This document shows positions 3-60,868 of a stretch of 64,000 nucleotides of DNA, piece after piece. Every line of letters begins with the position of its first letter. The stretch's first letter is position 1. The translations under genes were made by a program, and so were the position numbers. This DNA is from a virus: the IMG/VR virus record IMGVR_UViG_3300010367_000012, positions 20,856 to 84,855 of that record; one strand, 5' to 3'. A model generated the notes under the pieces. That model was not told the DNA's origin. It did no database searches and saw only the letters and a program-made list of their open reading frames with translations.

Positions 3-245
3 AATCCACAGTTCAGTAGTGGTACTGCCCCAAAAGCTAATGGCGCATATCCTCAGCACACACATCCTGAAGGATCATCAACTGCGCCATTGCCTAATCT
101 GACAGCATCTCAGCCAAAGCCGAATACATTTACTACTGGCTCCAGAAATGCTAAGCCTGGTGGAATCGCAGCACGTGGATCACAACTAGAGGCTTGGGCA
201 ATTGGACGTACTCAGCAGATCAGACAGCAAAGACAGGGAGAATAG
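3..245 (+). CDS. 3' end of a gene truncated by the window edge (hypothetical)
   Basis: Open frame from position 3 (NPQFSSGTAPK...RQQRQGE) ending at TAG 243-245; not in the ORF track because the start is outside the window. Confidence 0.7.
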   Translation, partial: NPQFSSGTAPKANGAYPQHTHPEGSSTAPLPNLTASQPKPNTFTTGSRNAKPGGIAARGSQLEAWAIGRTQQIRQQRQGE

Positions 246-247
246 CC

Positions 248-22121: not shown

Positions 22122-22193
22122 CGGGTACGAGGAAGATGGTAATCCGCCTGTTTTGGGAACAGGATAAACGGGGTTCGATTCCCCGGTACCCGA
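22122..22193 (+). tRNA. tRNA-Pro(TGG)
   Basis: cgggtac/gtacccg acceptor; cctgt-tt TGG ga-acagg; TTCGATT T-loop. Confidence 0.9.
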
Positions 22194-22328
22194 CTAGTCA
22201 GCTTGAACTGTAAGGATGTAAATCCGAATCAGCGCCTGCTGACTTTAAACTTGAGTAAACACACATATGAAAACACCCTCAACAAATACTAATGGTGCTC
22301 ATCATATCGTTTTACTCATTTCTGTAAT

Positions 22329-22400
22329 GGCCCTTTAGCTCAATTGGCAGAGCATCCGGTTGAAGCCCGGAGTATATCGGTTCGAGTCCGGTGGGGGCCA
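22329..22400 (+). tRNA. tRNA-Phe(GAA)
   Basis: tccgg-tt GAA gc-ccgga; canonical D and T arms. Confidence 0.92.
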
Positions 22401-22476
22401 CTCACCCGTAAACCTTTATCTGATCAATTCTGGTGTTGGGTCTGCGCACAAAGACCAGGGTGAACGATTTCTTTAT

Positions 22477-22548
22477 GGCTTAGTAGCTCAGTGGAAGAGC
22501 GGCCGTCTCATACGCGGCTTGTCGGGAGTTCGATTCTCTCCTAAGCCA
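22477..22548 (+). tRNA. tRNA-Met(CAT), elongator (or Ile2)
   Basis: gccgt-ct CAT ac-gcggc; paired 1:72. Confidence 0.88.
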
Positions 22549-22549
22549 C

Positions 22550-22626
22550 TGCACGGATAGAGAAACGGTGTCTCACGAGCCTCATAAGCTCGCAAGTAGA
22601 GGGTTCGACTCCCTCCTGTGCCCCCA
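22550..22626 (+). tRNA. tRNA-Met(CAT), possibly initiator-like
   Basis: cgagc-ct CAT aa-gctcg; T1:C72 mismatch; encoded CCA; lacks the three G-C pairs typical of fMet. Confidence 0.8.
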
Positions 22627-22685
22627 CTTCTTTACATGCCCTATCTTATGTAGTACACTCCAGTTATCAACGACTAGGAGGAACT

Positions 22686-23039
22686 GTGGGAGATAGGGCA
22701 AACGTTTATATTCATGAGAATGGTCGTCCGGGCGTATACCTGTACACGCACTGGGATGGTACGTATTTACCCCGTCTGATTAAGGACGCGTTACAGACGG
22801 ATCGTGCACAAAACCGCTTGACTGATTCTGCGTATTTGACAAGAATCCTGTTCGAAGAGATGATTAAGAACACTCTCGGGGAAGAGACAGGATATGGAAT
22901 CTCAGCGGAAGTACAGGACGGTTCCGACCGTATCGTAGATATAGACACATACAACTGCATAATAACTTTAAAGGGCTATCCTTATGACTGGGATGGCGTG
23001 CCAATCGATCCTTATGCCTATGAGGATGAGATCTGGTAA
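22686..23039 (+). CDS. conserved phage hypothetical protein
   Basis: 117 aa, AGGAGG SD; GVYLYTHWDG motif. Confidence 0.85.
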   Translation: MGDRANVYIHENGRPGVYLYTHWDGTYLPRLIKDALQTDRAQNRLTDSAYLTRILFEEMIKNTLGEETGYGISAEVQDGSDRIVDIDTYNCIITLKGYPYDWDGVPIDPYAYEDEIW

Positions 23040-23076
23040 GTTAGGGGTCCTGAGCATGACGAGAAACTGCTCCCAA

Positions 23077-23152
23077 TCGGTATTAGTGTTTAACGGCAGC
23101 ACATCAGTCTTCCAAACTGAGAGAGGGAGTTCGAATCTCCTATACCGGACCA
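23077..23152 (+). tRNA. tRNA-Gly(TCC)
   Basis: tcagt-ct TCC aa-actga; encoded CCA. Confidence 0.9.
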
Positions 23153-23153
23153 T

Positions 23154-23227
23154 TCCCCATTCGTATAATGGCAATACATGCGCCTCTGGAGCGTAGAATC
23201 GAAGTTCGAATCTTTGATGGGGAGCCA
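23154..23227 (+). tRNA. tRNA-Gln(CTG)
   Basis: tgcgc-ct CTG ga-gcgta; tccccat/atgggga; CCA. Confidence 0.9.
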
Positions 23228-23358
23228 CACGTACAGAAACTGGAAGAATAACGGATCTGGAACGCACATAATAACCATGGTAAAGGTGCGGAAAGGTGAA
23301 GGGAAGCAACTGGGAAGTTCGTATCCGCTTGTAAACGGCTCTGCGGCACGTGAGACCA

Positions 23359-23429
23359 TGGGGATTCGTCTAATGGCAGGACGGGGGTTTTTGGTGCCCT
23401 CTGTGGAGGTTCGAATCCTTCATCCCCAG
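23359..23429 (+). tRNA. tRNA-Gln(TTG)
   Basis: tggggat/atcccca; ggggt-tt TTG gt-gccct. Confidence 0.88.
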
Positions 23430-23496
23430 CAAGATGCTATATTAACTTGGCCAGTGTTGTAATAGGCTGTGTCCTGCCTTAAAGGACACCCCCACT

Positions 23497-23570
23497 GCCC
23501 CGTGGGACTGCTGGAGTGGTCACAGGCTTGTCACGCCTGTATCAGGCGGGTTCGATTCCCGTACGGGGCG
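23497..23570 (+). tRNA. tRNA-Asp(GTC)
   Basis: caggc-tt GTC ac-gcctg. Confidence 0.9.
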
Positions 23571-23574
23571 CTTT

Positions 23575-23645
23575 GCTCCTATTGTGTAATGGAAGCACGC
23601 TACCCTCTCAAGGTAGGGGTCGGAGTTCAATTCTCCGTAGGAGTA
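23575..23645 (+). tRNA. tRNA-Glu(CTC)
   Basis: ctacc-ct CTC aa-ggtag. Confidence 0.9.
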
Positions 23646-23814
23646 CAATCGGCATCCTTGTAGGTTCCAAAGATAGGACCATGCCCCTGTCGGGGGTTCG
23701 AGTGGATATCGCTAGCGGAAATTGGAATACGCTGCCTACAATAGATTTCAAAGTAAGTGACGTCATAGGATGCCTGACAGTCACATAAGCCTAGGGGTCG
23801 CTCCTCTAGGTTCT

Positions 23815-23886
23815 GCTCCCATCGTATATTGGTTAGTATCGCGGTTTTTCACACCGCAGGACGGGGTTCAATTCCCCGTGGGAGTA
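23815..23886 (+). tRNA. tRNA-Glu(TTC)
   Basis: gcggt-tt TTC ac-accgc. Confidence 0.9.
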
Positions 23887-24131
23887 CGTTTGGAACCAGT
23901 CATAGCTTACGCCCCACGTATACTCAAACAGACTGGATAGGGTATACCAGCATAGAAGAGGCGCAGACAAGGGAAGGGCCTCCAGGTGGGAGAACCGCTA
24001 TTCTTTGGCAAGAATAGTAGGCACAAGGGATGAGACCACCAGCCACAGTACTACTTACCTTTCTAGAAATGCTATACAATAGAAGAGCTATAGCGATCAC
24101 TTAGTGATTCTTTCTAGAAAGGTTTAATAAT

Positions 24132-24443
24132 ATGGCTTTTGGTGCTAATACCGTAGTTAGAGTAAACGCTCTAACTGTAGGACAGCAGGTTGTAGCCGCC
24201 GTTGCAGCAGATGGACATGCATATGTGTATCCAACCCCTACAACAGGTGGTGCTACATACCCAACTGTTCGTAAGTTGATCCCAGCAGACGTTCCCGCAG
24301 GAACTGATAGTGCTGGAAACCCTGTAACTAGTGCAGCAGTTCTTTGGACAGTACAGTTGAGTGGAAGTGCTTTCTCTCTTCCTATCGATTTTACTCTTAA
24401 CGCAATTACTGACTACGTTATTGTTACAACTGGTTCAGCGTAA
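24132..24443 (+). CDS. hypothetical beta-rich protein (possibly virion)
   Basis: 103 aa, GAAAGG SD, Thr/Val/Ala-rich. Confidence 0.75.
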   Translation: MAFGANTVVRVNALTVGQQVVAAVAADGHAYVYPTPTTGGATYPTVRKLIPADVPAGTDSAGNPVTSAAVLWTVQLSGSAFSLPIDFTLNAITDYVIVTTGSA

Positions 24444-24464
24444 GATTCTTAGAGAAAGAGTTAT

Positions 24465-24860
24465 ATGGCTACATATACTAAAAAGGCTATCGATCTAGCA
24501 ATAGGCGATTACCTTGTACATATTCCTGCAAGTGTGGATAATTCTGAAGTGACTAAGGTTGCTCCATATCCACAGGTCACAGGTATTAGCTATGGTGGAT
24601 TTTCAGACGGACAACTTGGTGTTAACTACGGTCTTGATGGCGGACACATTGACTTCAATATGTTAGCTAGTATCACGATTACAGTATCCAATATGGCTTC
24701 GGATGACGGAAAAACCATTGTTACTTTACCTGCGGACAGACTTGTAGCAGGAAATCAGATTAATGGCGTTGCTATTACTGATGTAAAGATTGTGGCTACA
24801 ACCTCAGACTCTGTACAACATCAATATGCACTTACTGATGTTGTTCAAGTAGCACAGTAA
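24465..24860 (+). CDS. hypothetical beta-rich protein with two A-x-D/R-L-x-x-G repeats
   Basis: 131 aa; AIDLAIGD and ADRLVAGN. Confidence 0.75.
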   Translation: MATYTKKAIDLAIGDYLVHIPASVDNSEVTKVAPYPQVTGISYGGFSDGQLGVNYGLDGGHIDFNMLASITITVSNMASDDGKTIVTLPADRLVAGNQINGVAITDVKIVATTSDSVQHQYALTDVVQVAQ

Positions 24861-24913
24861 GATTTAGAGTGGGCTATGGGTAAGAAATTCATAGCCCACT
24901 CATAACTTTATAT

Positions 24914-25777
24914 TTGTTGATACCATGTGAGAGTACTAGCCCTACTCTTGTATTGGATAATAAATTGGCTACCTATTACCGTAGTATTTCTGAGTCTGCA
25001 TCTGAAACTAATGGCGGAAGACTGGGACGTCATGTAAAGCATGATTCCCGCTCTCTTGACTACAAGTTTGATGGTTCAGGTATTGCTACTGCTTCAATTC
25101 GTCATACTCGTTATATTCCTGTACTAGATCAGGGTGACTTAGGTTCTTGTACAGGAAATGCGGCTACTGGTAACCTTGGTACTGGAGCCTTCTACGCCAC
25201 TATCCCATCTAGCCTAACGCTAGACGAGACTGAGGCTGTAAAGCTCTACAGCGCTGCTACAGCGCTTGACAGCTACCAGGGTACGTATCCTCCCACCGAT
25301 ACTGGTTCAGACGGTCTGAGCGTCGCTAAGGCGGCACAGAAGGCTGGTCTGATCTCTGGTTACCAGCACATCACTTCTTTGGCTGATGCTATCGCTGCTC
25401 TACAGCTAGGTCCGATCATCACTGGAGTCAACTGGTACAGCTCATTTGACAATCCCAGCAAGACAGGTAAGGTGTCTATCACCAAGTCTGCTTATGTCCG
25501 TGGAGGGCATGAGTTCGTTCTTGATGAGGTTGATGCGACAAATAAGCTTATCGGTGCAACTAACTCCTGGGGAGAGTCTTGGGGTCTTAAGGGACGCTTC
25601 TACTTCTCCTTCGCAGATTATGAGCGCTTGCTAGCTGAGCAAGGAGATGCTACAGTGTTCGTAAAGCTAGTAACTCCAGAGCCAACCCCAACACCTACTC
25701 CGGTAAGTGTTGATCCTGATACTCTTGCTGCCTACCAGTCCCTAAAGGCTTGGGCAATCAAGAACAACGTTCAGTAG
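24914..25777 (+). CDS. papain-like (C1 family) cysteine peptidase
   Basis: VLDQGDLGSCTGNA (Q/C), GGHEF (H), NSWGESWG (N); true start may be TTG 24965. Confidence 0.88.
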   Translation: MLIPCESTSPTLVLDNKLATYYRSISESASETNGGRLGRHVKHDSRSLDYKFDGSGIATASIRHTRYIPVLDQGDLGSCTGNAATGNLGTGAFYATIPSSLTLDETEAVKLYSAATALDSYQGTYPPTDTGSDGLSVAKAAQKAGLISGYQHITSLADAIAALQLGPIITGVNWYSSFDNPSKTGKVSITKSAYVRGGHEFVLDEVDATNKLIGATNSWGESWGLKGRFYFSFADYERLLAEQGDATVFVKLVTPEPTPTPTPVSVDPDTLAAYQSLKAWAIKNNVQ

Positions 25778-25778
25778 A

Positions 25779-25807
25779 CTTGACGCCTGCCATTGGGCAT
25801 AGTACAA
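25779..25807 (+). promoter_or_regulatory. sigma70/HrdB-like promoter for the tRNA block
   Basis: TTGACG-N17-TACAAT upstream of tRNA-Thr. Confidence 0.6.
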
Positions 25808-25815
25808 TGGCTAAT

Positions 25816-25887
25816 GCCGCTATAGCTTATCTGGCAAAGCACCTGTCTTGTAAACAGGAGTGCTCGGTTCGAGTCCGGGTAGCGGCT
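25816..25887 (+). tRNA. tRNA-Thr(TGT)
   Basis: cctgt-ct TGT aa-acagg. Confidence 0.92.
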
Positions 25888-25899
25888 CTCCACTTTAAT

Positions 25900-25971
25900 G
25901 CCTCTGAAGTTCATTGGTTGAATTTCCCCTTGGTACGGGGAAGGTACAGGGTTCAATTCCCTGCTGAGGCT
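25900..25971 (+). tRNA. tRNA-Thr(GGT)
   Basis: tcccc-tt GGT ac-gggga. Confidence 0.88.
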
Positions 25972-25975
25972 CTTC

Positions 25976-26048
25976 GGCGGTGTAGCATAAGGGAAATGCG
26001 CCTATCCTGAACCGATAGGAGATCTCAGTGTAACTCTGAGCACCAATG
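25976..26048 (+). pseudogene. degenerate tRNA-like element
   Basis: D arm (gcat..atgc), 6-bp anticodon stem cctatc/gatagg around ctgaacc, T stem ctcag/ctgag with non-canonical TGTAACT loop; acceptor positions 2-3 unpaired and 1:72 only G.U. Confidence 0.55.
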
Positions 26049-26052
26049 ACAT

Positions 26053-26126
26053 GCTCCGGTATCCCAAAGGCAGAGGACATAGTCTCAAAAACTATGCTAG
26101 TGTCGGTTCGAGTCCGACTCGGAGTA
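26053..26126 (+). tRNA. tRNA-Leu(CAA), short variable region
   Basis: atagt-ct CAA aa-actat. Confidence 0.88.
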
Positions 26127-26132
26127 CTTTAT

Positions 26133-26205
26133 GGTCCCTTAGCCCAATGGCAGAGGCAACAGATTTAAACCCTGTTTAGTATCGGTTCGAGTCCGATAGG
26201 GACTA
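26133..26205 (+). tRNA. tRNA-Leu(TAA), bldA-like specificity, short variable region
   Basis: acaga-tt TAA ac-cctgt (A31:C39 mismatch); A73 discriminator; GG in D loop. Confidence 0.82.
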
Positions 26206-26218
26206 CTTTACACATCAT

Positions 26219-26299
26219 GCCGGTGTGGCGGAATGGCAGACGCGATGGTCTTAGGAACCATTGTCTTCGGGCGTGCAGGTTCGACTCCTGTCACCGGTA
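26219..26299 (+). tRNA. tRNA-Leu(TAG)
   Basis: atggt-ct TAG ga-accat; long variable arm. Confidence 0.92.
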
Positions 26300-26357
26300 C
26301 TCGCTTGACATCTACTAGCTTCAGTAGTACGCTGTTACTAACGAAGGGAGCAAGCAG

Positions 26358-26567
26358 ATGGATATTGTTACAGGAATTCTTGCTTTTCTGGGAACGGCTG
26401 GTCTTTTCGGTCTGTTCATCTTCTTCATGATCCAGAAGCAAGGCTGGAGGTTGGCACAGATTGTCGCAGGTGCTATCATGGGCATCCTGCTTGTGTCTAA
26501 CTTTCCAGGACTTCCAAATGCAGTAAATGACGGACTGACAGGTATTGTCAATTCGTTTAAGAAGTAG
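26358..26567 (+). CDS. small two-TM membrane protein
   Basis: 69 aa, AAGGGAG SD; upstream TTGACA-N17-TACGCT promoter near 26305. Confidence 0.8.
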   Translation: MDIVTGILAFLGTAGLFGLFIFFMIQKQGWRLAQIVAGAIMGILLVSNFPGLPNAVNDGLTGIVNSFKK

Positions 26568-26588
26568 TAAGATGGGCTTCGGCCCTAT

Positions 26589-26659
26589 ATGCCACTGGTG
26601 TACCGGAAGCATAACTGGCTCCAACCCAGCGGGACAAGGTTCGACTCCTTGGTGGCGTG
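26589..26659 (+). tRNA. tRNA-Trp(CCA)
   Basis: actgg-ct CCA ac-ccagc; atgccac/gtggcgt acceptor; short D arm. Confidence 0.8.
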
Positions 26660-26707
26660 CGTATAATTTGATAAATTAACAAACAGCTCTTCTTTGAAGA
26701 GCCTTAT

Positions 26708-26779
26708 TCCCCTGTAGCTCAACGGCAGAGCAGTCGACTGTTAATCGACCGGTTGTTGGTTCGAATCCAGCCGGGGGAG
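26708..26779 (+). tRNA. tRNA-Asn(GTT)
   Basis: gtcga-ct GTT aa-tcgac. Confidence 0.93.
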
Positions 26780-26804
26780 CTTGTGCCGTAAGGCACACGA
26801 GCAT

Positions 26805-26956
26805 TGACAGCGATGCGTAGTTGAGAGATACTTCATACAAGGGAAACCGCATGTGAAGGTTCAAATCCTTCCGGCCCGACTCTTCGGGACGTAGCTCAAC
26901 TGGATAGAGCAGTGGTAAATATAAAAGCACTTTCAACGCCCTTTTCTAGCTGTCAA
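26805..26956 (+). ncRNA. Y RNA 1 (YrlA-like, with permuted tRNA module)
   Basis: Terminal stem ttgacagc/gctgtcaa with CGATGCGTAG ... CGCCCTTTTCTAG; internal T arm (gaagg TTCAAAT ccttc), loop-closed acceptor-like stem, then D arm (gctc aactggata gagc). Confidence 0.85.
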
Positions 26957-26966
26957 AACAACTTAA

Positions 26967-27078
26967 TAGCCGATGCGTAGACTTGGGTTACTTCGCAACC
27001 AAATTATATGCGGCCCTTCGGTTCGATTCCAGGGTCAATGGGCTGGTGCCCTTTCCTAAGTCGCCTCTTTCTAGGCTA
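26967..27078 (+). ncRNA. Y RNA 2
   Basis: tagcCGATGCGTAG gacttggg TTACTTC ... cctaagtc GCCTCTTTCTAG gcta; internal T-arm-like GGTTCGATTCC. Confidence 0.8.
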
Positions 27079-27094
27079 ACAATTTAACAAGCTT

Positions 27095-27169
27095 TACCCG
27101 ATGTGCAGGCAACAGTTACTTCTTCAATTATGGTGAAAACAAAGCACTGTAGCCGTTTTTTCTAGGGTA
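27095..27169 (+). ncRNA. Y RNA 3 (minimal, no tRNA module)
   Basis: taccCGATGTGCAG gcaacag TTACTTC ... AAGCA ctgtagc CGTTTTTTCTAG ggta. Confidence 0.75.
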
Positions 27170-27180
27170 TTTATTTTTAC

Positions 27181-27328
27181 GAGTTCCGATGCGTAGTTGG
27201 GGAGTTACTTCTAATTTCCTGCTAAGAAAAAGTTACGGGTTCGAATCCCGTTGCGTCCACTCCTGGGCGTATGGTGTAATTGGCAACACTAAAGAAACCA
27301 CGCTTCACGACGCCTTTTCTAGGAACTC
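27181..27328 (+). ncRNA. Y RNA 4 (YrlA-like, with permuted tRNA module)
   Basis: gagttcCGATGCGTAG ... CGCCTTTTCTAG gaactc; anticodon-like hairpin, T arm acggg TTCGAAT cccgt, closed acceptor-like stem, D arm gtg taattggcaa cac. Confidence 0.85.
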
Positions 27329-27338
27329 AATTTTTGAT

Positions 27339-27372
27339 ACCCTCCGTATTCCGATACTGGAGGGTTTTATTT
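27339..27372 (+). terminator. intrinsic terminator between the Y RNA array and the TROVE gene
   Basis: accctcc-gtattccgatac-tggagggt followed by tttatttt. Confidence 0.6.
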
Positions 27373-27405
27373 TAACTAATGGCGTACCACAACAAGGAGG
27401 ATGGA

Positions 27406-28986
27406 ATGGCTAAGTTCAACAAGACTGTAAAGACTGGTGTTACTTCCCCAGTAAAGTCCGCTAAGACTGCTCTCAATGAGTCTTTCAAGATGGGCTATGA
27501 GCGTGAGAAGAAGAGTGAGCTGTTCCTTCTTGCCGTTTCTAACTTCGTGGGTCAGGACACTTTCTATGAGAGTGCCCAGAAGCGTGATGACCGATTCGCT
27601 AGCCTTGTTCGTGAGGTTGCGGTTCAGGATCAGGCTTGGATCACCGGTTTCGTCAAGTGGCTTCGTAATGATGCCTTCATGCGCTCTGCGTCCATCGTAG
27701 CGGCTGCTGAGGGTGCCAAGGCACTTCTTGACGCAGGAACCATGAACGGCTCTCCTAGGGGCCTTGTAGCGGCTTCTCTAGCCCGTGCTGACGAGCCTGG
27801 TGAGTTCCTGGCGTACTGGACCAACAAGTTTGGCAAGAGTATCCCTGCTTCTGTAAAGAAGGGTGTTGCTGACGGAGCAAAGCGTCTCTACAACGAGTAT
27901 GGTTTGCTTAAGTACGACACCGATTCCAAGGGATTCCGCTTTGCTGACGTCATTCAGTTGACTCACGCTAAGGCTGGAAATGCTACTCAGAACTCTTTGT
28001 TCAAGTATGCTCTTGACCGCCGTTACGGAAATGACGCTGTTCCTGCTGAGTTGAACATGGTGAGCACTCGTGCTAACCTGATGTCTGCTCCTGTAGAGAA
28101 GCGTAAGGCTCTCATTGGTACTGCTGTTGGTCGAGACACGCTCAAGACTGCTGGTATTACCTGGGAAGCTCTTTCCGGATGGCTTCAGGGTCCGATGGAT
28201 AAGCAGGCTTGGGAAGCTGTTATTCCTAACATGGGTTACATGGCATTGCTGCGTAATCTCCGCAACTTCGTAGAGGCTGGTGTATCCAATGAGGTTCTTA
28301 AGGGCGTACTGGCAACACTGTCTGACGCTGGGCAGGTTTCTCGAAGCAAGCAGTTCCCATTCCGATTCCTTGCGGCCTATCAGGCTAACAAGGGAAATCT
28401 GAAGATTGCTGCTGCTCTTGAGGAAGCACTTGAGCACTCCCTTAGCAATGTTCCGTCTCTGACTGGACGTACGCTAATCCTGGTTGACCGCTCAGGTTCT
28501 ATGTTTCAGACTCACCAGAATGACCGTGAGTTGACCATGGCTGATAAGGCTGCTATCTTCGGTTCTGCGCTTGCGCTTCGTGCTGAGGATGCTGACTTGG
28601 TTCAGTTCGGTTCTGCATGGGGTGGACGTAAGCCTTACGAGGCTGTAAACTTCCGTCAGGGAGATTCACTGCTTCCTATGCTTGACAAGTTCCGTGACAT
28701 GGGTGGAACTGACACTCAGGGTGCCGTTCGCGGTAGCTTCAAGGGTCATGACCGCGTTATCATCATCACTGATGAGCAGTACAACGGTTACGGTGGCGAT
28801 CCTCTTTCTGCTGTTCCTGTGAACACTCCGGTGTACACCTGGAACTTGGAAGGGTATCGTGTCGGTCAGAGTCAGTCTGGTTCTAAGAAGCGTCACACCT
28901 TCGGTGGACTTACTGACAAGGGATTCGAGATGATTCCTCTCATCGAGATGGGTCAGTCTCAGAAGTGGCCTTGGGAGAAGAAGTGA
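27406..28986 (+). CDS. rsr: Ro60/Rsr TROVE-domain + vWA ribonucleoprotein
   Basis: ELFLLAVSNF..QDTFYES, LRNDAFMRS, LLKYD, DVIQLTHAK, TWEALSG, MGYMALLRNLRN, SKQFPFRFLAAY, LILVDRSGSM (MIDAS), IIITDEQ, WNLEGY; AAGGAGG SD before ATG 27406. Confidence 0.93.
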   Translation: MAKFNKTVKTGVTSPVKSAKTALNESFKMGYEREKKSELFLLAVSNFVGQDTFYESAQKRDDRFASLVREVAVQDQAWITGFVKWLRNDAFMRSASIVAAAEGAKALLDAGTMNGSPRGLVAASLARADEPGEFLAYWTNKFGKSIPASVKKGVADGAKRLYNEYGLLKYDTDSKGFRFADVIQLTHAKAGNATQNSLFKYALDRRYGNDAVPAELNMVSTRANLMSAPVEKRKALIGTAVGRDTLKTAGITWEALSGWLQGPMDKQAWEAVIPNMGYMALLRNLRNFVEAGVSNEVLKGVLATLSDAGQVSRSKQFPFRFLAAYQANKGNLKIAAALEEALEHSLSNVPSLTGRTLILVDRSGSMFQTHQNDRELTMADKAAIFGSALALRAEDADLVQFGSAWGGRKPYEAVNFRQGDSLLPMLDKFRDMGGTDTQGAVRGSFKGHDRVIIITDEQYNGYGGDPLSAVPVNTPVYTWNLEGYRVGQSQSGSKKRHTFGGLTDKGFEMIPLIEMGQSQKWPWEKK

Positions 28987-29128
28987 GTTGGTTTTGTATC
29001 TGGTGTAGAAACTGGGTTCCTTTCCCAAGGAACACCTGTCATCTATGCGGTAGACCAAAACCCATCAGTTGATTGGCAGAGTAAAATCTGCTAAGCTAGT
29101 AGTTCTACGGGGTAACTCGTAGAACAAT

Positions 29129-29199
29129 GGGGCCATCGTTCAATGGTAGGACACCTGTTTTGCAAGCAGGTAATCGGGGTTCGACTCCCCGTGGCTCCA
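29129..29199 (+). tRNA. tRNA-Ala(TGC)
   Basis: cctgt-tt TGC aa-gcagg; G3:U70. Confidence 0.92.
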
Positions 29200-29294
29200 C
29201 ATCGCAAATCCTGAGAGCGGGCTAAACCGGTTACGCCCTTAAGGGATGATTCCAGAGATGGTGACTACACTGGATTAACAAAGTAGTCACACCT

Positions 29295-29367
29295 GCTCCG
29301 GTAGCTCAGTTGGCAGAGCAGCGGACTCTTAATCCGCGTGTCCTCGGTTCAAGTCCGAGTCGGAGTA
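29295..29367 (+). tRNA. tRNA-Lys(CTT)
   Basis: gcgga-ct CTT aa-tccgc. Confidence 0.93.
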
Positions 29368-29503
29368 CAGTGTAGCTAGGAAGGGCTCTACAGCTTTGTA
29401 CTGCATTCCCCCTACCAGGCAGCGTGCGCACCTGTCCTGGCCATAGCAGTCCTCTATGCGGTTCTTGGAGAAGGCACAATGGTGCAACCTCATGGACTTT
29501 TTT

Positions 29504-29576
29504 GATTCATTAGCTCAGTTGGCAGAGCAGCAGACTTTTAATCTGAAGCGCCTCGGTTCGAGTCCGAGATGAATCA
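29504..29576 (+). tRNA. tRNA-Lys(TTT)
   Basis: gcaga-ct TTT aa-tctga. Confidence 0.9.
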
Positions 29577-29596
29577 CTTTACAATTAGGAGGAAAG

Positions 29597-30187
29597 ATGG
29601 CAGTACAACCAGGAGACTTTGGTCTAGTATCCATTAAGGGCGGAGTCGGATTATTAATCCGAATCGGTCAGTTTTTGAATGGAGATGGCTTCCGTGATTA
29701 CGAACACGCCTTTATTTATATGGGTGATGGTAAGATCGTTGAAGCTGAGCCTGGTGGTGCCCTTATTTCCGACTTGTCTGAGTATGATGGTCGTCCAATT
29801 ATCTGGTCTAGTGGACTTGTTCCCTTGACAGATGAGCAGCGCAACCTTATTGTTCAGTCAGCACTGGCGCAGGAAGGAACGCCTTACAGCTTCCTTGACT
29901 ACCTAGCCATTGCGTTGTATCGTCTCGGTATCAAGCATCCGGGTGTGGCACAGCGTGTTGAGAGTTCGAAGCACTTGATTTGCTCTCAGCTAGTTGCGCT
30001 AGACTATGAACATGCTGGTATACCGTTGACAGACTTACCACCGTATCTTGTGACTCCTGGCAAACTGACCAACTACTTGCTAAGACTCAAGGGATACGCT
30101 AAGCTAGCCAAGCAAGTACAGCACAGCGGAAGAAACAGTGTAAACATTCAAGCCGCAGGAGATATAAGCATTGGCAGTATTCGCTAA
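29597..30187 (+). CDS. permuted papain-like amidase (YaeF/YiiX, NlpC/P60 superfamily)
   Basis: QPGD, HAFIY (His before Cys), EAE, GTPYSF, ICSQLV, VTPG. Confidence 0.85.
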   Translation: MAVQPGDFGLVSIKGGVGLLIRIGQFLNGDGFRDYEHAFIYMGDGKIVEAEPGGALISDLSEYDGRPIIWSSGLVPLTDEQRNLIVQSALAQEGTPYSFLDYLAIALYRLGIKHPGVAQRVESSKHLICSQLVALDYEHAGIPLTDLPPYLVTPGKLTNYLLRLKGYAKLAKQVQHSGRNSVNIQAAGDISIGSIR

Positions 30188-30317
30188 CATAGATAACATT
30201 CGATGGTTCTTTCTCTGTAAGAAATGCAAGCCACAACTAACGTCAGATAACTATCCGACAAAAGATAGGGCTGAAGCAGCAGAGCAAAAGCACATTAGAA
30301 TAAAGCACGCAAAGTAA
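30171..30317 (+). CDS. small C2H2-type Zn-finger protein (48 aa, missed by the ORF track)
   Basis: TTG start after GGAG; ...CKKCK...KHIRIKH. Confidence 0.55.
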   Translation: MAVFANIDNIRWFFLCKKCKPQLTSDNYPTKDRAEAAEQKHIRIKHAK

Positions 30318-30320
30318 CAT

Positions 30321-30393
30321 GCGTCTGTAGCTCAATGGATAGAGCATCTGACTACGGATCAGAAGGTTGGGGGTTCGAATCCCTCCAGGCGCA
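30321..30393 (+). tRNA. tRNA-Arg(ACG)
   Basis: tctga-ct ACG ga-tcaga. Confidence 0.94.
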
Positions 30394-30503
30394 CAGGGAA
30401 ATCTAAACCATGTTGAAACACACCCTATAAAGTCTTAACACATGGGAGATCCGCCAGAGTCTCTGATATCTGGCATTTTCATACCTAAAACACGGAGGCA
30501 ACC

Positions 30504-31286
30504 ATGTTTGGTCGTAAGAAGAAGACGAACGATTCGCTTACGGTTCTCAAGAGCATTACTCTTCAGAATCAGGCTAACTTTCAGCAGGTTTCGCTTGATA
30601 AGTCTCACGTTTCTCTTGTGAAGACTCAGGAGGCTGCTAAGGTTTCGCTTACTAAGCGAGGAATGGCAGGAAAGAAGTTTGCAGTCGGCATTATCGTGGA
30701 TAACTCTGGTTCTATGGGTCCGTGGGGATTCAATTTCTACAACAAGGGTTATGTGCAGACGCTGACTGAGTTTGCTCTGGGCTATGCCTTTGAGGTGGAC
30801 ACGGATGGTCTGATCCCGGTTGGTGTCTTTGGAGATGGCTTCCAGTGGGCTTCTGAGGACCTTACACAGGACAACTACAAGGGTTTCGTAGCCTCTCAGG
30901 GCTGGAACGGCAACGGTGGCGGTACGAACACTGGTGGCGCTCTGGAGAAGGTTCAGGAGCTGTTTGACCACTCTGAGGATCTTAACCTCATTATCGTTGT
31001 TACTGACGGTATGCCGAATAGCAAGTCGCACGTTATTCAGCAGCTTGAGCTTATGTCTCGTAAGCCTTATGTTGTCAAGTGGCTTATTGTTGGTGATGAC
31101 GCTGAGGCACTGAAGTTCGGTAAGCACATTGACGATAACCTTGCTGGTCTTGTTGACAATGTTGACACCAAGAACTACACTGGTAAGGACCTTGCAAAGC
31201 TGACTCCTGAGAAGTTTGCTGAGGACATGTCCGACGAGCTTGACACGTATGAGGTTGCAGCAAGGGACAAGGGTATTCTTAAGTAA
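30504..31286 (+). CDS. vWA-domain protein (Ter stress-cluster type)
   Basis: IIVDNSGSM MIDAS, DTDG.IPV..F, GGGTN, IVVTDG; GGAGG SD. Confidence 0.85.
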   Translation: MFGRKKKTNDSLTVLKSITLQNQANFQQVSLDKSHVSLVKTQEAAKVSLTKRGMAGKKFAVGIIVDNSGSMGPWGFNFYNKGYVQTLTEFALGYAFEVDTDGLIPVGVFGDGFQWASEDLTQDNYKGFVASQGWNGNGGGTNTGGALEKVQELFDHSEDLNLIIVVTDGMPNSKSHVIQQLELMSRKPYVVKWLIVGDDAEALKFGKHIDDNLAGLVDNVDTKNYTGKDLAKLTPEKFAEDMSDELDTYEVAARDKGILK

Positions 31287-31295
31287 GGAGTATTT

Positions 31296-31808
31296 ATGTC
31301 ACGTACTCGTAAAGATCGTCCATACTGGGTTATGAAGAATGATCCTGAGATGGACCGATATGCACGACACGATCATTTGGTTACTCTTCGAGAGCAAGTC
31401 GGAGAAGAGCCTGTTTACCGCAATGTCCTGGATAAGGATGGCTGGCACTGGAAAGAAGAAGTCTTGTACATGAGACCTATCTTCCGTACCTGGACAGAGA
31501 CTGTCGATTGCACTCTTGACATCCCTGAAGAGCCTGTGTCAGTATGGAGACGTAAGACCCTCAAGGGTAAGACCAACGAAGATCGACTTGCTGAGAAGAA
31601 TTGCTTCCACTGGTTGGAATACTATCCAAATACCAGAAGCAGCAAGGACTTCAAGCAGTTGACAAACGGGGCCGTACGCTCTAAGGTTAGACAACAGCTA
31701 CACAGCGCGGTACGTGATTACGGTACTTATTGGGAAGACGACGACTGGTACGATGTTGATGTCTTCGTAGACAGCAAGCACGCTAGTAACGGATGGTGGG
31801 ATTGGTAA
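31296..31808 (+). CDS. hypothetical protein
   Basis: 170 aa, AAGGAG SD; MSRTRKDRP N-terminus. Confidence 0.8.
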   Translation: MSRTRKDRPYWVMKNDPEMDRYARHDHLVTLREQVGEEPVYRNVLDKDGWHWKEEVLYMRPIFRTWTETVDCTLDIPEEPVSVWRRKTLKGKTNEDRLAEKNCFHWLEYYPNTRSSKDFKQLTNGAVRSKVRQQLHSAVRDYGTYWEDDDWYDVDVFVDSKHASNGWWDW

Positions 31809-31957
31809 TGGCAGCAAAGGTGAACACTAAGGTCACTTTGCCCAGCGGTAAAAAGGGAGTTGTAACTACTCCTCCTACTGGAACACCTGGTAAGGAAACT
31901 CAGGAAGTCTGGGTTAAGCCTGGAGAGTCTTACCGAGTCCCTGCGAAGGACTTGTAG
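31808..31957 (+). CDS. small SH3-like protein (49 aa, missed by the ORF track)
   Basis: MAAKVNTKVTLPSGKKGVVTTPPTGTPGKETQEVWVKPGESYRVPAKDL; TAATG coupling. Confidence 0.65.
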   Translation: MAAKVNTKVTLPSGKKGVVTTPPTGTPGKETQEVWVKPGESYRVPAKDL

Positions 31958-32023
31958 TAAAATTGGGGGATACGGGTAGACGCAGCCGCCGTATCTTAAA
32001 TGAAGCAGGGACTCGCCCCACTT

Positions 32024-32096
32024 GCTCCAGTAGCTCAGCGGATAGAGCAATCGCCTTCTAAGCGATAGGTCGCAGGTTCGAATCCTGCCTGGAGCA
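32024..32096 (+). tRNA. tRNA-Arg(TCT)
   Basis: atcgc-ct TCT aa-gcgat. Confidence 0.94.
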
Positions 32097-32120
32097 CGCC
32101 GTATCTTACAAGGAGGAATA

Positions 32121-32321
32121 ATGGCTGATAGTAAGAAGCTCAAGCGTGGAGATCGCGTCAAGACGGCTGTTGGTGAGGGTACTGTCACCTGGACAGAAAG
32201 CTCAACTGGTCGGTTTGTCGTTGATAACTATCCTCACGCATTGTCTTCTGGGGATCTGCGAGAAGTTGTCAAAGAGCCTGAATCTGGAAAGAAGAAGGGT
32301 TTGTTCGGCCGTAAGAAGTAA
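32121..32321 (+). CDS. small SH3/KOW-like protein
   Basis: LKRGDRVKTAVGEGTVTW; GGAGG SD. Confidence 0.75.
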   Translation: MADSKKLKRGDRVKTAVGEGTVTWTESSTGRFVVDNYPHALSSGDLREVVKEPESGKKKGLFGRKK

Positions 32322-32353
32322 GCTATACTTGTACAACGCCCTTCGGGGCACTT

Positions 32354-32424
32354 GCCCGATTAGGTTAATGGGAGACCAGTAGTTTTACACACTACATGCG
32401 GGGGTTCGATTCCCTCATCGGGTA
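32354..32424 (+). tRNA. tRNA-Val(TAC)
   Basis: gtagt-tt TAC ac-actac. Confidence 0.88.
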
Positions 32425-32515
32425 CGTGAAACCAAAAACACCAAAGCCCTATCCAGGGCCTAATAATCCGAAACCACCGAGTGGTCCTAGACCACCTTAT
32501 AGAACTTAATACAAT

Positions 32516-32593
32516 GGGGCTGGAAGGTTTCGACGTTGGCGAAAGCCGCACGCGGAGCACCAGCGGACCTGGGTTCGATTCCCAGCAGCTCCA
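32516..32593 (+). ncRNA. mini-tmRNA: tRNA-like domain only, no tag reading frame
   Basis: 5' GGGGCTG-GAAGGTTTCGAC and 3' GGAC-CTGGG-TTCGATT-CCCAG-CAGCTCC-A are tmRNA end signatures; G3:U70; P2 cgttgg/ccagcg closes only about 20 nt. Confidence 0.8.
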
Positions 32594-32595
32594 CT

Positions 32596-32672
32596 GGTGC
32601 CGGACCTAGATCACATGGCGTGGTAGCGCTCTGCAAAAGCGTTGGTTCGGGGTTCGATTCCCCTCGGTACCT
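32596..32672 (+). tRNA. tRNA-Cys(GCA)
   Basis: gcgct-ct GCA aa-agcgt; U73; atypical D arm. Confidence 0.8.
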
Positions 32673-32676
32673 CTTT

Positions 32677-32762
32677 GGAAACTTGGCTGAGATGGCTTAA
32701 GGTGCTCGACTGCTAATCGAGTGAAGGTAACACTTCCACGGGTTCGAATCCCGTAGTTTCCG
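32677..32762 (+). tRNA. tRNA-Ser(GCT)
   Basis: ctcga-ct GCT aa-tcgag; long variable arm; G73. Confidence 0.92.
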
Positions 32763-32767
32763 CGCAT

Positions 32768-32851
32768 GGAAGGGAAGCAAATGGTTAGCGGCTACGCTGG
32801 AAACGTAGTGAGGGTTTACCGCCCGAGCGGGTTCGATTCCCGTCCCTTCCG
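32768..32851 (+). tRNA. tRNA-Ser(GGA)
   Basis: ctacg-ct GGA aa-cgtag; long variable arm. Confidence 0.9.
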
Positions 32852-32949
32852 CAGCACTTGGCAGTGCAACCCTATGTGGTCTGCCTTTTATCGCGGTCTG
32901 GCCTAACGCCAGGGGCTCCGGTACTAAAACAAAATCAGTAGGGCACAAT

Positions 32950-33033
32950 GGAGGAACTAACATCGGTGGCGTGGCACGGTCTTGAAAACCGTACGGTGTA
33001 AAAGCCGTGGGGGTTCGAATCCCTCTTCCTCCG
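32950..33033 (+). tRNA. tRNA-Ser(TGA)
   Basis: acggt-ct TGA aa-accgt; long variable arm. Confidence 0.88.
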
Positions 33034-33037
33034 CTTT

Positions 33038-33112
33038 GCTCCTGTGGCCAAGTTTGGTGAAGGCAGCACTCTTATAAGGTGAAGATCGTCAGTTCAAATC
33101 TGACCAGGAGTA
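33038..33112 (+). tRNA. tRNA-Ile(TAT)
   Basis: gcact-ct TAT aa-ggtga; A73; canonical D and T arms. Confidence 0.82.
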
Positions 33113-33125
33113 CGTTAGGGAGACA

Positions 33126-33434
33126 ATGCGAAACATTACTATGGAGAACTTCAATGAGGTTCTTGAATCTAGCAAGCCTGTTCTTGTTGATTTCTGGGCT
33201 GAATGGTGTGGTCCTTGTAAGATGATGACACCCGTGCTAGAGTCTGTAGACAAGGAGAACGAGTGGCTAGACGTAGTGAAGATCAATGCAGATGAACAAG
33301 CTGATCTGGCTAAGCGTTATGACGTATCCTCTATTCCAACTCTTATGCTTTTCAAGAATGGCAAGATCGTTGAGTATCATGTAGGAGCCTTGCCAAAGTT
33401 CAAGATCCTTGGTATCATTAACGAACACAAGTAA
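33126..33434 (+). CDS. trxA: thioredoxin
   Basis: VLVDFWAEWCGPCK, SIPTL. Confidence 0.95.
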   Translation: MRNITMENFNEVLESSKPVLVDFWAEWCGPCKMMTPVLESVDKENEWLDVVKINADEQADLAKRYDVSSIPTLMLFKNGKIVEYHVGALPKFKILGIINEHK

Positions 33435-33441
33435 GCAACAA

Positions 33442-33513
33442 TCGGGCGTAGTTCAATGGTTAGAACGGCTCTCTGATAAGGAGCAGACGGAGGTTCAATT
33501 CCTCTCGCCCGGA
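33442..33513 (+). tRNA. tRNA-Ile(GAT)
   Basis: gctct-ct GAT aa-ggagc. Confidence 0.9.
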
Positions 33514-33515
33514 CT

Positions 33516-33587
33516 GTGACTGTAGCATAATGGCAATGCGCCACGTTGTGGTCGTGGTTTATGCGGGTTCAATTCCCGTCAGTCACC
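33516..33587 (+). tRNA. tRNA-His(GTG)
   Basis: ccacg-tt GTG gt-cgtgg; C73; the -1 base is T, not G. Confidence 0.88.
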
Positions 33588-33589
33588 CC

Positions 33590-33671
33590 GGATGTGTAAC
33601 CCGTAATTGGTAGCGGTGCGGCCTGTAAAGCCGTTGTTTCGACTCTGGGGGTTCAAGTCCCTCCGCATCCA
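33590..33671 (+). tRNA. tRNA-Tyr(GTA)
   Basis: gcggc-ct GTA aa-gccgt; long variable arm. Confidence 0.9.
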
Positions 33672-33685
33672 CGTAAGACCAAAAG

Positions 33686-40528: not shown

Positions 40529-42103
40529 ATGGCCACTGATATTGATTTAGATGAGCTAACAGCGGAAGAGCTGGAAGCCTATAAAAGTACGACTATTGAT
40601 CTAGACCCTCGTTCTCAAGCATGGGTTGACTCTCTTGTAGAGAAGCTATTGCTATTCGCGGATGAATTATCTGGGCACCCTCTCTATGGATATCAGCGTC
40701 CATTTGCTGCTCGATTCATGGAGTCAGTCATCATTAACGATGGCGCTACAGTTACTGCTCTCTTCTCTCGTCAGTCAGGAAAGACTGAGACGGTAGCTGC
40801 TTCCGTAGCCACCATGATGATTATGCTTCCTCGCCTTGCCAAGGTTGAGCCGTTCAATGAGTGGCTAGAAGACTTCAAGGAAGGCGTATGGGTTGGAGCG
40901 TTCGCACCAGTAGATGACATGGCTAAGACTCTTTACTCTCGAATCATCTCTATGTTCGAATCTGAAAGAGCAAAGGAGATCCTAGCTGATCCTTCTATTG
41001 ATGAGAAGGTACGTGGTCGTGGAGCCGAGATGAAGCTAGAGAAGTGTGGCTCTCTCGTACGCAGACAGACTGCTCACCCTCGCGCGAACATTGAAGGTAA
41101 GACCTATCACATTGCTCTCCTGGACGAGTCTCAGGTAGCTGACCAGAAGGTAGTAGACAAGTCTATCCGCCCTATGTTGGCGTCCACTAATGGAACCTTC
41201 GTTATGACAGGAACTCCTACATACGAAAAGGGAGTCTTCTACCGAGAGATTCAGCACAACAAGCGCAACGCTACTAAGCGCGGAGCGCGTACCAACCACT
41301 TCCAGGCTGACTATCGAGAAGTATCCAAGTGGAACAAGAGATACGAAAAGGCTGTCAATGGTGACATGCTTCGTATGGGATATGACTCTGACGAATTCAA
41401 GCTTTCCTACCGTCTGCTCTGGCTTCTGGAACAGGGAATGTTCACCACCTCTGAGCGTCTTGAAGAGCTTGGAGATAAGACAATGCAGATCGTAAAGAAC
41501 TACAACACTTCTCCTATCATCATTGGTATCGATCCTGCCAGAAAGATTGACAGCACGATTGTCACTGCTCTATTCGTAGACTGGGATCATCAGGATGAGT
41601 ACGGATACTATAACGTACGTATTCTAAATTGGCTTGACCTACAAGGACAAGACTGGGAAAGCCAGTATCATAGAATCGTAGAGTTCGTGTCCAAGTATAA
41701 TGTCTGGGCTATTGGAGTAGACGTAGGCGGAATGGGAGATATCTTTATCTCTCGCTTGCGTGTACTACTACCGCATATTGAAATCGTAGATGTATCCTCA
41801 CAACGTCCCCAGCAGTCTGAGCGCTGGAAGTATCTAAGAGAGATGCTGGACAGAGGAAAGCTAGGATGGCCTGCACATGCCAAGACAAGAAACTTGCGCA
41901 CATACAGAAACTTCGTTCAGCAGATGTCGGATCTTCAGGTTAAGTTTGAAGGGCCGTACATGCTGGCAGAAGCGCCAAAGGAAGTCAATGCGCACGATGA
42001 CTACTGTGACTCCTTGGCTATCGCACTAAGTATCATTCCCGAGAATATTCACGAGGAAGTAGAGATCTCTAATAATCCCTTTTATGACAGACGTAGATCT
42101 TAA
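40529..42103 (+). CDS. terL: terminase large subunit
   Basis: Walker A SRQSGKT, Walker B ALLDESQ, TGTP, nuclease GIDPAR and HDDYCDSLA. Confidence 0.95.
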   Translation: MATDIDLDELTAEELEAYKSTTIDLDPRSQAWVDSLVEKLLLFADELSGHPLYGYQRPFAARFMESVIINDGATVTALFSRQSGKTETVAASVATMMIMLPRLAKVEPFNEWLEDFKEGVWVGAFAPVDDMAKTLYSRIISMFESERAKEILADPSIDEKVRGRGAEMKLEKCGSLVRRQTAHPRANIEGKTYHIALLDESQVADQKVVDKSIRPMLASTNGTFVMTGTPTYEKGVFYREIQHNKRNATKRGARTNHFQADYREVSKWNKRYEKAVNGDMLRMGYDSDEFKLSYRLLWLLEQGMFTTSERLEELGDKTMQIVKNYNTSPIIIGIDPARKIDSTIVTALFVDWDHQDEYGYYNVRILNWLDLQGQDWESQYHRIVEFVSKYNVWAIGVDVGGMGDIFISRLRVLLPHIEIVDVSSQRPQQSERWKYLREMLDRGKLGWPAHAKTRNLRTYRNFVQQMSDLQVKFEGPYMLAEAPKEVNAHDDYCDSLAIALSIIPENIHEEVEISNNPFYDRRRS

Positions 42104-59963: not shown

Positions 59964-60007
59964 GATAGAATGAGTACTAATCTTTCGTGACAATATTTGG
60001 AGAACGT

Positions 60008-60868
60008 ATGGAACACCAGATGCCTCAGTATTCAATGTCCTTCGATGACGATCAGGGGCAGGTAGTAAATGACAGCACAGATATCAATTCGTTAACGAAG
60101 AAGGTATTGCAGTCAATGAACTCTGCTCCTGTCATTGACGAACTTCCTGATACCTACGTAACACTTCCTGCTGGAATTGTCGTAGATGGAAGAGTGGATA
60201 ACAGTGCTGAAGTTCGTGAATTAACTGGTGAGCACGAGGAGAAGTTGGCTAAGGCTCGTCTGTCTAATAACGCAGCCAAGTATGTCAATACTCTTCTACA
60301 GTGTGGAACAGTTTCTATTGGTGGACAAGAAGCCACCCCAGCACTTCTAGACTCTCTGCTTCAGGGAGATCTGGATATGCTTATGCTCGCTATTCGCAGA
60401 GCAACCTTCGGTGAGGAATTTGAAGTCTATGAAGTAGAGTGTCCTCACTGCCAGGAACTAAATGATCTAGAGCTTAACCTTAAGGACATTCCCGTACAAA
60501 AGTTAGAGGACCCCGAGACTCGGGAGTTTCTTATAGATCTTCGTAAGGGTAGACAAGCTAAGATCAAGTTCCCGACAGGTGCAGTTCAGAATGAGATCTT
60601 CAAGAACAACCTAACCATTCCAGAGATGAACTCTCTTACTCTTGCCGAGTGTGTTATTTCCTTTATCGAAAAGGATGGCACTGAGCTGAAGTCAACTGGT
60701 CTGGCAGATGTAAAGAAGCTAGGTCTAGCTGACAGAAAGACTCTTCAGGAATACATCTATGATAATCAGCCCGGACCACGATACGATCAGGTTACTGCCC
60801 TGTGTGCATCGTGCGAAGGAGAGGTTCCTGTCCCGCTAAATGTGGGTATCCTATTTCGTGAACTCTGA
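60008..60868 (+). CDS. tail assembly chaperone / baseplate hub (T4 gp26-like)
   Basis: VRELTGEHEE, GDLDMLMLAIRRATFG, CPHC, CASC; ATG 60008 after GGAG. Confidence 0.8.
   Translation: MEHQMPQYSMSFDDDQGQVVNDSTDINSLTKKVLQSMNSAPVIDELPDTYVTLPAGIVVDGRVDNSAEVRELTGEHEEKLAKARLSNNAAKYVNTLLQCGTVSIGGQEATPALLDSLLQGDLDMLMLAIRRATFGEEFEVYEVECPHCQELNDLELNLKDIPVQKLEDPETREFLIDLRKGRQAKIKFPTGAVQNEIFKNNLTIPEMNSLTLAECVISFIEKDGTELKSTGLADVKKLGLADRKTLQEYIYDNQPGPRYDQVTALCASCEGEVPVPLNVGILFREL

Follow-up and report, generated by a model that had tools for sequence, protein, structure and literature searches.

A short-arm tRNA-Leu(UAA) gene and TTA codon use in a BRock-like phage

Decoding of UUA in Streptomyces and its phages

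The rare leucine codon UUA, of which the whole Streptomyces coelicolor genome holds 145, is read in Streptomyces by the developmentally controlled tRNA bldA, whose functional form depends on MiaA and MiaB, expressed late (Antonov et al. 2023, PMC10732093). We retrieved bldA from 29 genomes, nearly all of Streptomyces, by searching with its variable arm as given in Fan et al. 2019 (PMC6614811); the tRNA is of type II, measures 85 to 87 nt, has a long variable arm that is paired, and carries a single G in its D loop. The statement in the initial annotation of the locus described here that UUA is read by this single tRNA holds in six Streptomyces genomes, where bldA is the sole tRNA gene able to read the codon. 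Streptomyces phages usually lack UUA codons (PMC10732093). Like the phage described here, phiHau3 links phages to the UUA/bldA system, but with the opposite strategy: its UUA in the terminase has been proposed to sense the state of the host via translational bypassing (Smith 2013; Antonov 2023, PMC10732093), whereas the present phage brings its own decoder.

The second relevant host system is the short-arm (type I) tRNA-Leu(CAA) of Streptomyces. The LeuRS of S. coelicolor charges tRNA-Leu of both types, I and II (Fan et al. 2019, PMC6614811), and apart from the Streptomyces enzyme no prokaryotic LeuRS is known to charge type I tRNA-Leu; the E. coli enzyme is unable to do so (PMC6614811). What counts for charging by the S. 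coelicolor enzyme is the U8-A14 pair, C74 and a variable loop no shorter than 5 nt and including position 48, whereas A73 does not matter (PMC6614811). As relayed in PMC6614811, the short-arm tRNA-Leu(CAA) with its anticodon changed to UAA was reportedly the sole isoacceptor that replaced bldA (Pettersson and Kirsebom 2011). A strict search pattern for the host short-arm tRNA-Leu(CAA), with its variable loop as printed in Fan et al. 2019, gave no matches, but a pattern of geometry only found it in two Streptomyces genomes (L036:1469-1543 and L035:1488-1562), with a D arm, variable loop and T arm nearly as in the viral scaffold described below. Geometry combined with a T-arm signature placed a short-arm tRNA(CAA) in about 28 of 41 sampled Streptomyces species, and the exact D-arm string occurred in 4 of 121.

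Among phages, MindFlayer and Genie2 of the BE cluster carry a short-arm UAA tRNA of 74 to 75 nt (74 nt in Genie2) and share with the present phage a low GC content, richness in tRNA genes, a tRNA-Ile(UAU) and TTA in conserved genes, but they belong to another family (Stanwilliamsviridae) and have the UAA tRNA placed differently. GenBank records of BE-cluster phages already list this gene as tRNA-Leu, and low-GC Streptomyces phages with large tRNA sets and matched codon use have already been published. The best full-length database match of our tRNA (about 80%) is the FelixO1 tRNA-Leu for UUA; in both cases, a phage tRNA serves an A-ending codon which the phage uses more often than its host does. 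Codon-compensating sets of the FelixO1 and T4 type (model cited in PMC10690885) differ from the present case, in which the host's one reader of the codon is dispensable and developmentally regulated, and in which the codon is almost completely avoided by phages that bring no tRNA for it themselves. In the literature that we found, there is no mention of a phage UUA tRNA in relation to bldA, nor of short-arm tRNA-Leu in phages. We also observed that FelixO1-like coliphages carry type I tRNA-Leu (L004:299-377) although E. coli LeuRS cannot charge type I (PMC6614811).

The tRNA-Leu(UAA) gene and its genomic setting

The window, i.e., the whole stretch of 64,000 nt that was analysed, comes from a 112,476-bp virus record that is rated complete and has 47.7% GC. 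Its only relatives at the nucleotide level are the Streptomyces phages GiJojo, LuckySocke, Alone3, pSt2308 and BRock, with protein identities of 87% to 89% for the major capsid, 79% to 81% for the terminase and around 77% for the portal. BRock has been described as a virulent myovirus, and BRock-type phages are without lysogeny genes. All five cultured relatives were isolated on Streptomyces, and this kinship, the sole basis of our host assignment, makes Streptomyces or a very close genus the likely host, in agreement with the streptomycete host that the initial annotation had itself inferred.

The TAA-anticodon tRNA which that annotation had picked out is a well-formed gene (Table 1): ARAGORN calls it at 26133-26206 of the window, RF00005 of Rfam matches 26133-26205 with 54.2 bits (gathering score 29), and the sequence folds into a cloverleaf. 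The acceptor stem has 7 bp including G1.U72, the D arm consists of a 3-bp stem and a 10-nt loop, and the five positions of the anticodon stem end in an A31.C39 mismatch; the molecule is completed by a variable loop of 5 nt, a T stem of 5 bp and discriminator A73, and its pair 3:70 is U-A. The core residues U8, A14, G18G19, U33, T54-T55-C56, A58 and C61 are all present and are invariant in an alignment of 63 sequences. C74 is encoded at 26206, but the full CCA end is absent from the DNA and would have to be completed by a host enzyme; neither a CCA-adding enzyme nor MiaA was found in this phage.

The tRNA shares with bldA the anticodon UAA, the codon and the 3' half of the anticodon loop, AAAC (A36 A37 C38). 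In contrast to the chromosomal, long-arm type II bldA, it is a type I tRNA of 73 nt that lies in a phage tRNA array outside the developmental control of the host; it has no long variable arm, and its gapped identity to bldA, at about 61%, does not amount to sequence homology. The phage tRNA is an analogue of bldA, not a homologue.

Table 1. Features of the window, with coordinates, strand and supporting observations.
Feature	Coordinates	Strand	Observations
Queuine tRNA-ribosyltransferase-like gene	194..1753	+	In-frame TTA codons 50, 200, 268, 498; none in orthologues
tRNA island	22122..33672	+	30 ARAGORN tRNAs plus Ser(GGA) by Rfam only
Sigma-70-like promoter match, 10/12	25780..25808	+	Consensus match only; just upstream of Thr-Thr-Leu-Leu-Leu tRNA cluster
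Short-arm tRNA-Leu(CAA)	26053..26126	+	ARAGORN, cloverleaf; ends 5 nt before tRNA-Leu(UAA)
tRNA-Leu(UAA), short-arm (type I)	26133..26205	+	73 nt to discriminator A73; ARAGORN, Rfam, cloverleaf, covarying scaffold family
Anticodon TAA in loop UUUAAAC	26166..26168	+	Cloverleaf
tRNA-Leu(UAG), 82 nt, intermediate variable arm	26219..26299	+	ARAGORN, Rfam; 12 nt after tRNA-Leu(UAA)
Long-arm tRNA-Ser(GGA)	32768..32851	+	Rfam 37.8 bits; not called by ARAGORN; equivalent annotated in relatives
tRNA-Ile(UAU)	33038..33112	+	Other tRNA here missing from five BRock-group relatives
Large terminase	40529..42103	+	In-frame TTA codons 7, 47; none in five relatives' orthologues
Portal protein	46003..47715	+	In-frame TTA codons 201, 378; none in orthologues
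Baseplate hub	59987..60868	+	In-frame TTA codons 36, 79, 173; none in orthologues

The gene belongs to a phage tRNA set that is nearly complete, an island of about 31 tRNAs that cover 19 amino acids (no tRNA for Cys was found in it) and are accompanied by RNA-repair-type genes, among them an RNA ligase and Ro60 with Y RNAs. The relatives keep around 29 tRNAs, and in all five of them Leu(CAA) and Leu(UAG) occupy the corresponding site without a UAA gene in between; within the BRock-like group, the UAA tRNA is found in this genome and in none of the five cultured members. The neighbouring Leu(UAG) is a short-arm tRNA of 75 nt in LuckySocke and Alone3 (L052-L057, L064-L069) and a longer-arm one in GiJojo, pSt2308, BRock and the present phage, so that a single scaffold serves several Leu anticodons in this one phage group. 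A weak tRNA-like match without an ARAGORN call lies at 25976-26048 on the plus strand, between Thr(GGU) and Leu(CAA); it scores 29.0 bits, equal to the gathering score, and may be a decayed tRNA.

Probable leucine identity, viral scaffold and origin

When viral contigs were scanned for this D arm together with a UAA anticodon, at least 120 loci matched, of which at least 119 hold a tRNA(UAA) of 73 to 77 nt, comprising at least 87 distinct sequences. Among the 119 matches listed for the D arm and short geometry with the anticodon left free, 117 had one or other of the six Leu anticodons, the remaining two being one Asn(GUU) with G73 and one false hit. This near-restriction of a Leu-type D arm and scaffold to Leu anticodons is what an anticodon-blind LeuRS predicts and thus argues for leucine identity. 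The fold itself covaries: across 63 members, 98.3% of cells are paired, 18 of 20 pairs have changed on both sides, and the covariation score of 0.92 compares with 0.22 in shuffles (none of 500 reached 0.92) and 0.10 to 0.16 in slid controls. The scaffold is very common in viral contigs (L070-L234), where it occurs with all six Leu anticodons and a median locus GC of 41% among the matches listed. Two other tRNAs of these contigs are of separate interest, the Asn(GUU), G73 member on a Leu scaffold (L232:813-884), which possibly reflects a change of identity on a Leu body, and an ARAGORN-called tRNA with the amber-reading anticodon CUA (L212:5152-5223, minus strand) on a 167-kb viral contig with four Leu tRNAs in a row.

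Among the features that matter to the S. coelicolor enzyme in Fan et al. 2019, U8-A14 and a 5-nt variable loop are present in the phage tRNA. A 3-bp D stem is common to the UAA and UAG tRNAs of the phage, the host short-arm tRNA-Leu(CAA) and bldA, with D loops of 10 nt in the phage UAA tRNA, 11 nt in the host short-arm tRNA and 9 nt in bldA. The S. coelicolor type I tRNA-Leu(CAA) further resembles the phage tRNA in its D loop, its variable loop of 5 nt as given in PMC6614811 and its T arm, though identity to the host tRNA is about 65% to 69% and the phage one has G1.U72, U32 and the A31.C39 mismatch. By this analogy, the phage gene resembles a naturally occurring counterpart of the CAA-to-UAA construct. 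The orthologue alignments bear on the meaning of the codon: TTA positions of the phage align to Leu in 63.7% of cases and its other Leu codons in 59.3% (p=0.27), compared with 6% for Phe codons and 2% for Lys codons. These alignments indicate, indirectly, that TTA means leucine in this phage.

As to where the gene came from, U32 and the A31.C39 mismatch are common to the phage tRNA-Leu(UAA) and the Leu(CAA) genes of all five relatives but rare in the viral UAA family (2 of 119 and 3 of 119, respectively, among the matches listed), which favours, as a possible route, that the neighbouring Leu(CAA) was duplicated locally and one copy then changed C34 to U. The duplication is not settled, since the D and anticodon arms of the phage tRNA recur almost unaltered in L192, an unrelated viral contig rich in tRNAs, and since the highest overall identity, 84%, is to the UAA tRNA of Rhodococcus phage Trina; the exact anticodon arm of the phage tRNA had no match in viral contigs. 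In any case, the scaffold is widespread in viruses of many environments, and the gene is not a device invented for Streptomyces.

The 5' acceptor strand of the phage tRNA-Leu(CAA) is identical to that of the host short-arm tRNA-Leu(CAA) and of the relatives' CAA genes, i.e., the Streptomyces type I tRNA has the acceptor strand of the BRock-group CAA tRNAs, and common ancestry or phage-host exchange of short-arm tRNA-Leu is possible. We consider quite unlikely a far-reaching joint version of this idea, by which the Streptomyces short-arm tRNA-Leu(CAA) and the dual specificity of LeuRS would stem from tRNA exchange with phages and, at the same time, the phage tRNA would act as a bldA surrogate that licenses TTA in essential phage genes and in host TTA genes (adpA) in infected young hyphae, altering development near plaques.

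TTA codon use and what the tRNA may do

Possession of the UAA tRNA goes along with a marked difference in codon use. In 40 core genes (about 12,000 aligned codons), the phage has 40 TTA codons spread over 18 genes and each of the five tRNA-less relatives has none (Fisher 4e-31). The genes concerned include terminase, portal and baseplate hub, and TTA is also found in a tail-spike-like gene; in the queuine tRNA-ribosyltransferase-like and portal ORFs, the initial annotation had named TTA codons at 341-343 and 47134-47136, and both are indeed in frame. Counted over conserved ORFs, the phage holds 68 TTA (in 22,617 codons, GC3 0.45), BRock 1 and the other four relatives 9 to 14. Further afield, MindFlayer, with its own UAA tRNA, has 42 in conserved ORFs, whereas BillNye and Francob, low-GC Streptomyces phages without one, have 0 in 21,094 and 1 in 21,946 codons, respectively. 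Since Francob, at a GC3 of 0.44, is about the same as the present phage in this respect and yet holds a single TTA, avoidance of the codon goes with absence of the tRNA rather than with GC content. Presence of the tRNA thus tracks TTA use among related phages, with the Streptomyces phage StarPlatinum (45 TTA in conserved ORFs) as the sole exception, explained by a recent deletion of its UAA tRNA; the lineages behind the association that are independent are few, namely two that have the tRNA and three or four that lack it, and the association would fit either order of events, tRNA first or AT drift first. Higher counts from longest ORFs, which had suggested that the relatives tolerate 33 to 50 TTA and that BillNye and Francob use the codon at 1.4 to 1.8 per 1000, were withdrawn; restriction to conserved aligned regions leaves 0 to 14 in the relatives, and BillNye and Francob have 0 to 1 in conserved ORFs.

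When the shares of all synonymous codons are set against those in the relatives, TTA has gone up most (3.2-fold), ahead of CTA (1.9-fold), ATA (1.8-fold) and other A/T-ending codons (about 1.5-fold). ATA accounts for 6.8% of Ile codons in core genes compared with 0% to 0.7% in the relatives, alongside the gain of tRNA-Ile(UAU). With 68 to 109 TTA codons, or 3.0 to 3.4 per 1000, UUA is much commoner in the phage than in its host, as expected of codon compensation. Even so, TTA still occurs less often than expected (observed/expected 0.43), and the major capsid and scaffold genes have none; UUA has thus not become a free codon through the tRNA. A count by gene class, as proposed with the initial annotation, gave no significant difference in TTA share between the structural block and the rest of the genome (p=0.27). 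We also observed that TTA is enriched near gene starts, with 28 of 69 codons (conserved aligned regions) in the first fifth compared with 20% of other Leu codons (p ~1e-4).

We think it probable that a functional short-arm tRNA-Leu(UAA) supplies UUA decoding and permits the use of TTA independently of the scarce bldA. The tRNA would probably be transcribed with its neighbours in the island, processed by host enzymes that also complete its CCA end, and charged with leucine by a Streptomyces LeuRS that naturally accepts short-arm tRNA-Leu. It would then supply UUA decoding during infection and remove the dependence on the single, scarce and developmentally controlled bldA, and TTA could thereby have spread into phage genes, essential virion genes included, as the genome drifted to 47.7% GC. 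The tRNA, a member of a common viral scaffold, would raise fitness and permit TTA but not be absolutely needed on a bldA-positive host. Of this chain, the analysis shows the gene, its structure and scaffold family, the coupling to codon use and, through alignments, leucine as the meaning of TTA, while we infer the expression of the tRNA, its leucylation and the benefit during infection of young hyphae.

A different reading would make the UAA tRNA merely one unit of a near-complete set that sustains translation if host tRNAs run low, are broken down or are cleaved by anticodon nucleases, with no special link to bldA or to the use of TTA. The size of the set and the RNA-repair-type genes at its side fit this, the relatives maintain their sets without the UAA tRNA, large sets of phage tRNAs have been explained in the literature by defences that target tRNAs and by shut-off of the host, and short UAA tRNAs of the same scaffold occur in FelixO1 and Trina, phages of hosts without bldA-type control. 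What it leaves unexplained is that TTA is absent from conserved genes in exactly those Streptomyces phages that lack the tRNA and occurs in those that carry it, independent of GC, and bldA, being non-essential and scarce, is an unlikely target whose loss would need replacing; we therefore regard this account as unlikely. It is very unlikely that the tRNA serves to manipulate the host through early translation of its TTA genes (adpA, pathway regulators), changing development or antibiotics to the benefit of the phage. Any leucine-charged UAA tRNA would in principle read host UUA, and a short-arm UAA tRNA-Leu reportedly suppresses the bldA phenotype (as relayed in PMC6614811), but the sequence offers no evidence for such a role, the 68 to 109 TTA codons of the phage are reason enough, the virulence of BRock-type phages and their lack of lysogeny genes leave little time for developmental effects, and phages whose hosts are unrelated commonly carry this scaffold too.

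Whether the tRNA carries leucine at all has to be argued from structure and codon use, since its best and only full-length BLAST match in each of five Streptomyces genomes is not bldA but tRNA-Lys(UUU), at 74% to 78% identity and with a similar acceptor stem (an assignment confirmed by sequence in two of the five). Together with A35 and A36, which it has in common with tRNA-Phe, and the A31.C39 mismatch, this match could speak for a remoulded Lys-type tRNA, a Phe-misacylated or Ala-type one or an inactive relic. The D arm, however, is of Leu and not of Lys build (by reading of the sequence, C13-G22 of the host tRNA-Lys(UUU) can form a fourth D-stem pair), and U35, the main lysine determinant for LysRS, is absent; these points and the meaning of TTA in the alignments led us to reject the lysine origin or identity that BLAST had suggested. 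Against an Ala-type tRNA, pair 3:70 is U-A and not G.U, and a charge other than leucine would also be at odds with the Leu anticodons of 117 of the 119 matches listed and with TTA aligning to Leu as other Leu codons do. Against a relic speak the same mismatch being kept in Leu(CAA) of all five relatives and the presence of TTA in essential genes. The chance that the tRNA is inactive or not charged with leucine thus appears slim.

Taken as a supplier of UUA decoding, the tRNA need not give complete independence from the host. The claim of the initial annotation that the phage frees its translation from bldA fits the 40 TTA in core genes compared with 0 in the relatives, and the 0 to 1 in BillNye and Francob, but is incomplete: the tRNA relies on its host for LeuRS and for a CCA-adding enzyme, and probably for MiaA and MiaB too. 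As A36-A37-C38 is the same as in bldA and the phage is without MiaA, the phage tRNA may even be gated like bldA, if developmental control acts through MiaA/MiaB. Moreover, a clean deletion of about 87 bp, which takes out precisely tRNA-Leu(UAA), sets StarPlatinum apart from MindFlayer (L242:838-1737 vs L240:1262-2067), but StarPlatinum was isolated as a plaque former and keeps its 45 TTA in conserved genes; host bldA can therefore suffice, and the tRNA is dispensable on a bldA-positive host. MindFlayer and StarPlatinum hence form a natural knockout pair for the UAA tRNA.

Very probably, the phage decodes UUA with its own leucine tRNA and avoidance of TTA has relaxed as a result, an effect that is unusually clean for a phage tRNA of an already known kind. 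This genome and its relatives allow a natural comparison: where the tRNA is lacking, conserved genes are free of TTA even with a GC content of 47%, and where it is present, the codon is found in the terminase, portal and baseplate. The old idea that the rarity of UUA shields Streptomyces from phages thus becomes testable with existing phages, and the short-arm tRNA-Leu that had been described as an oddity of Streptomyces belongs to a very common viral scaffold.
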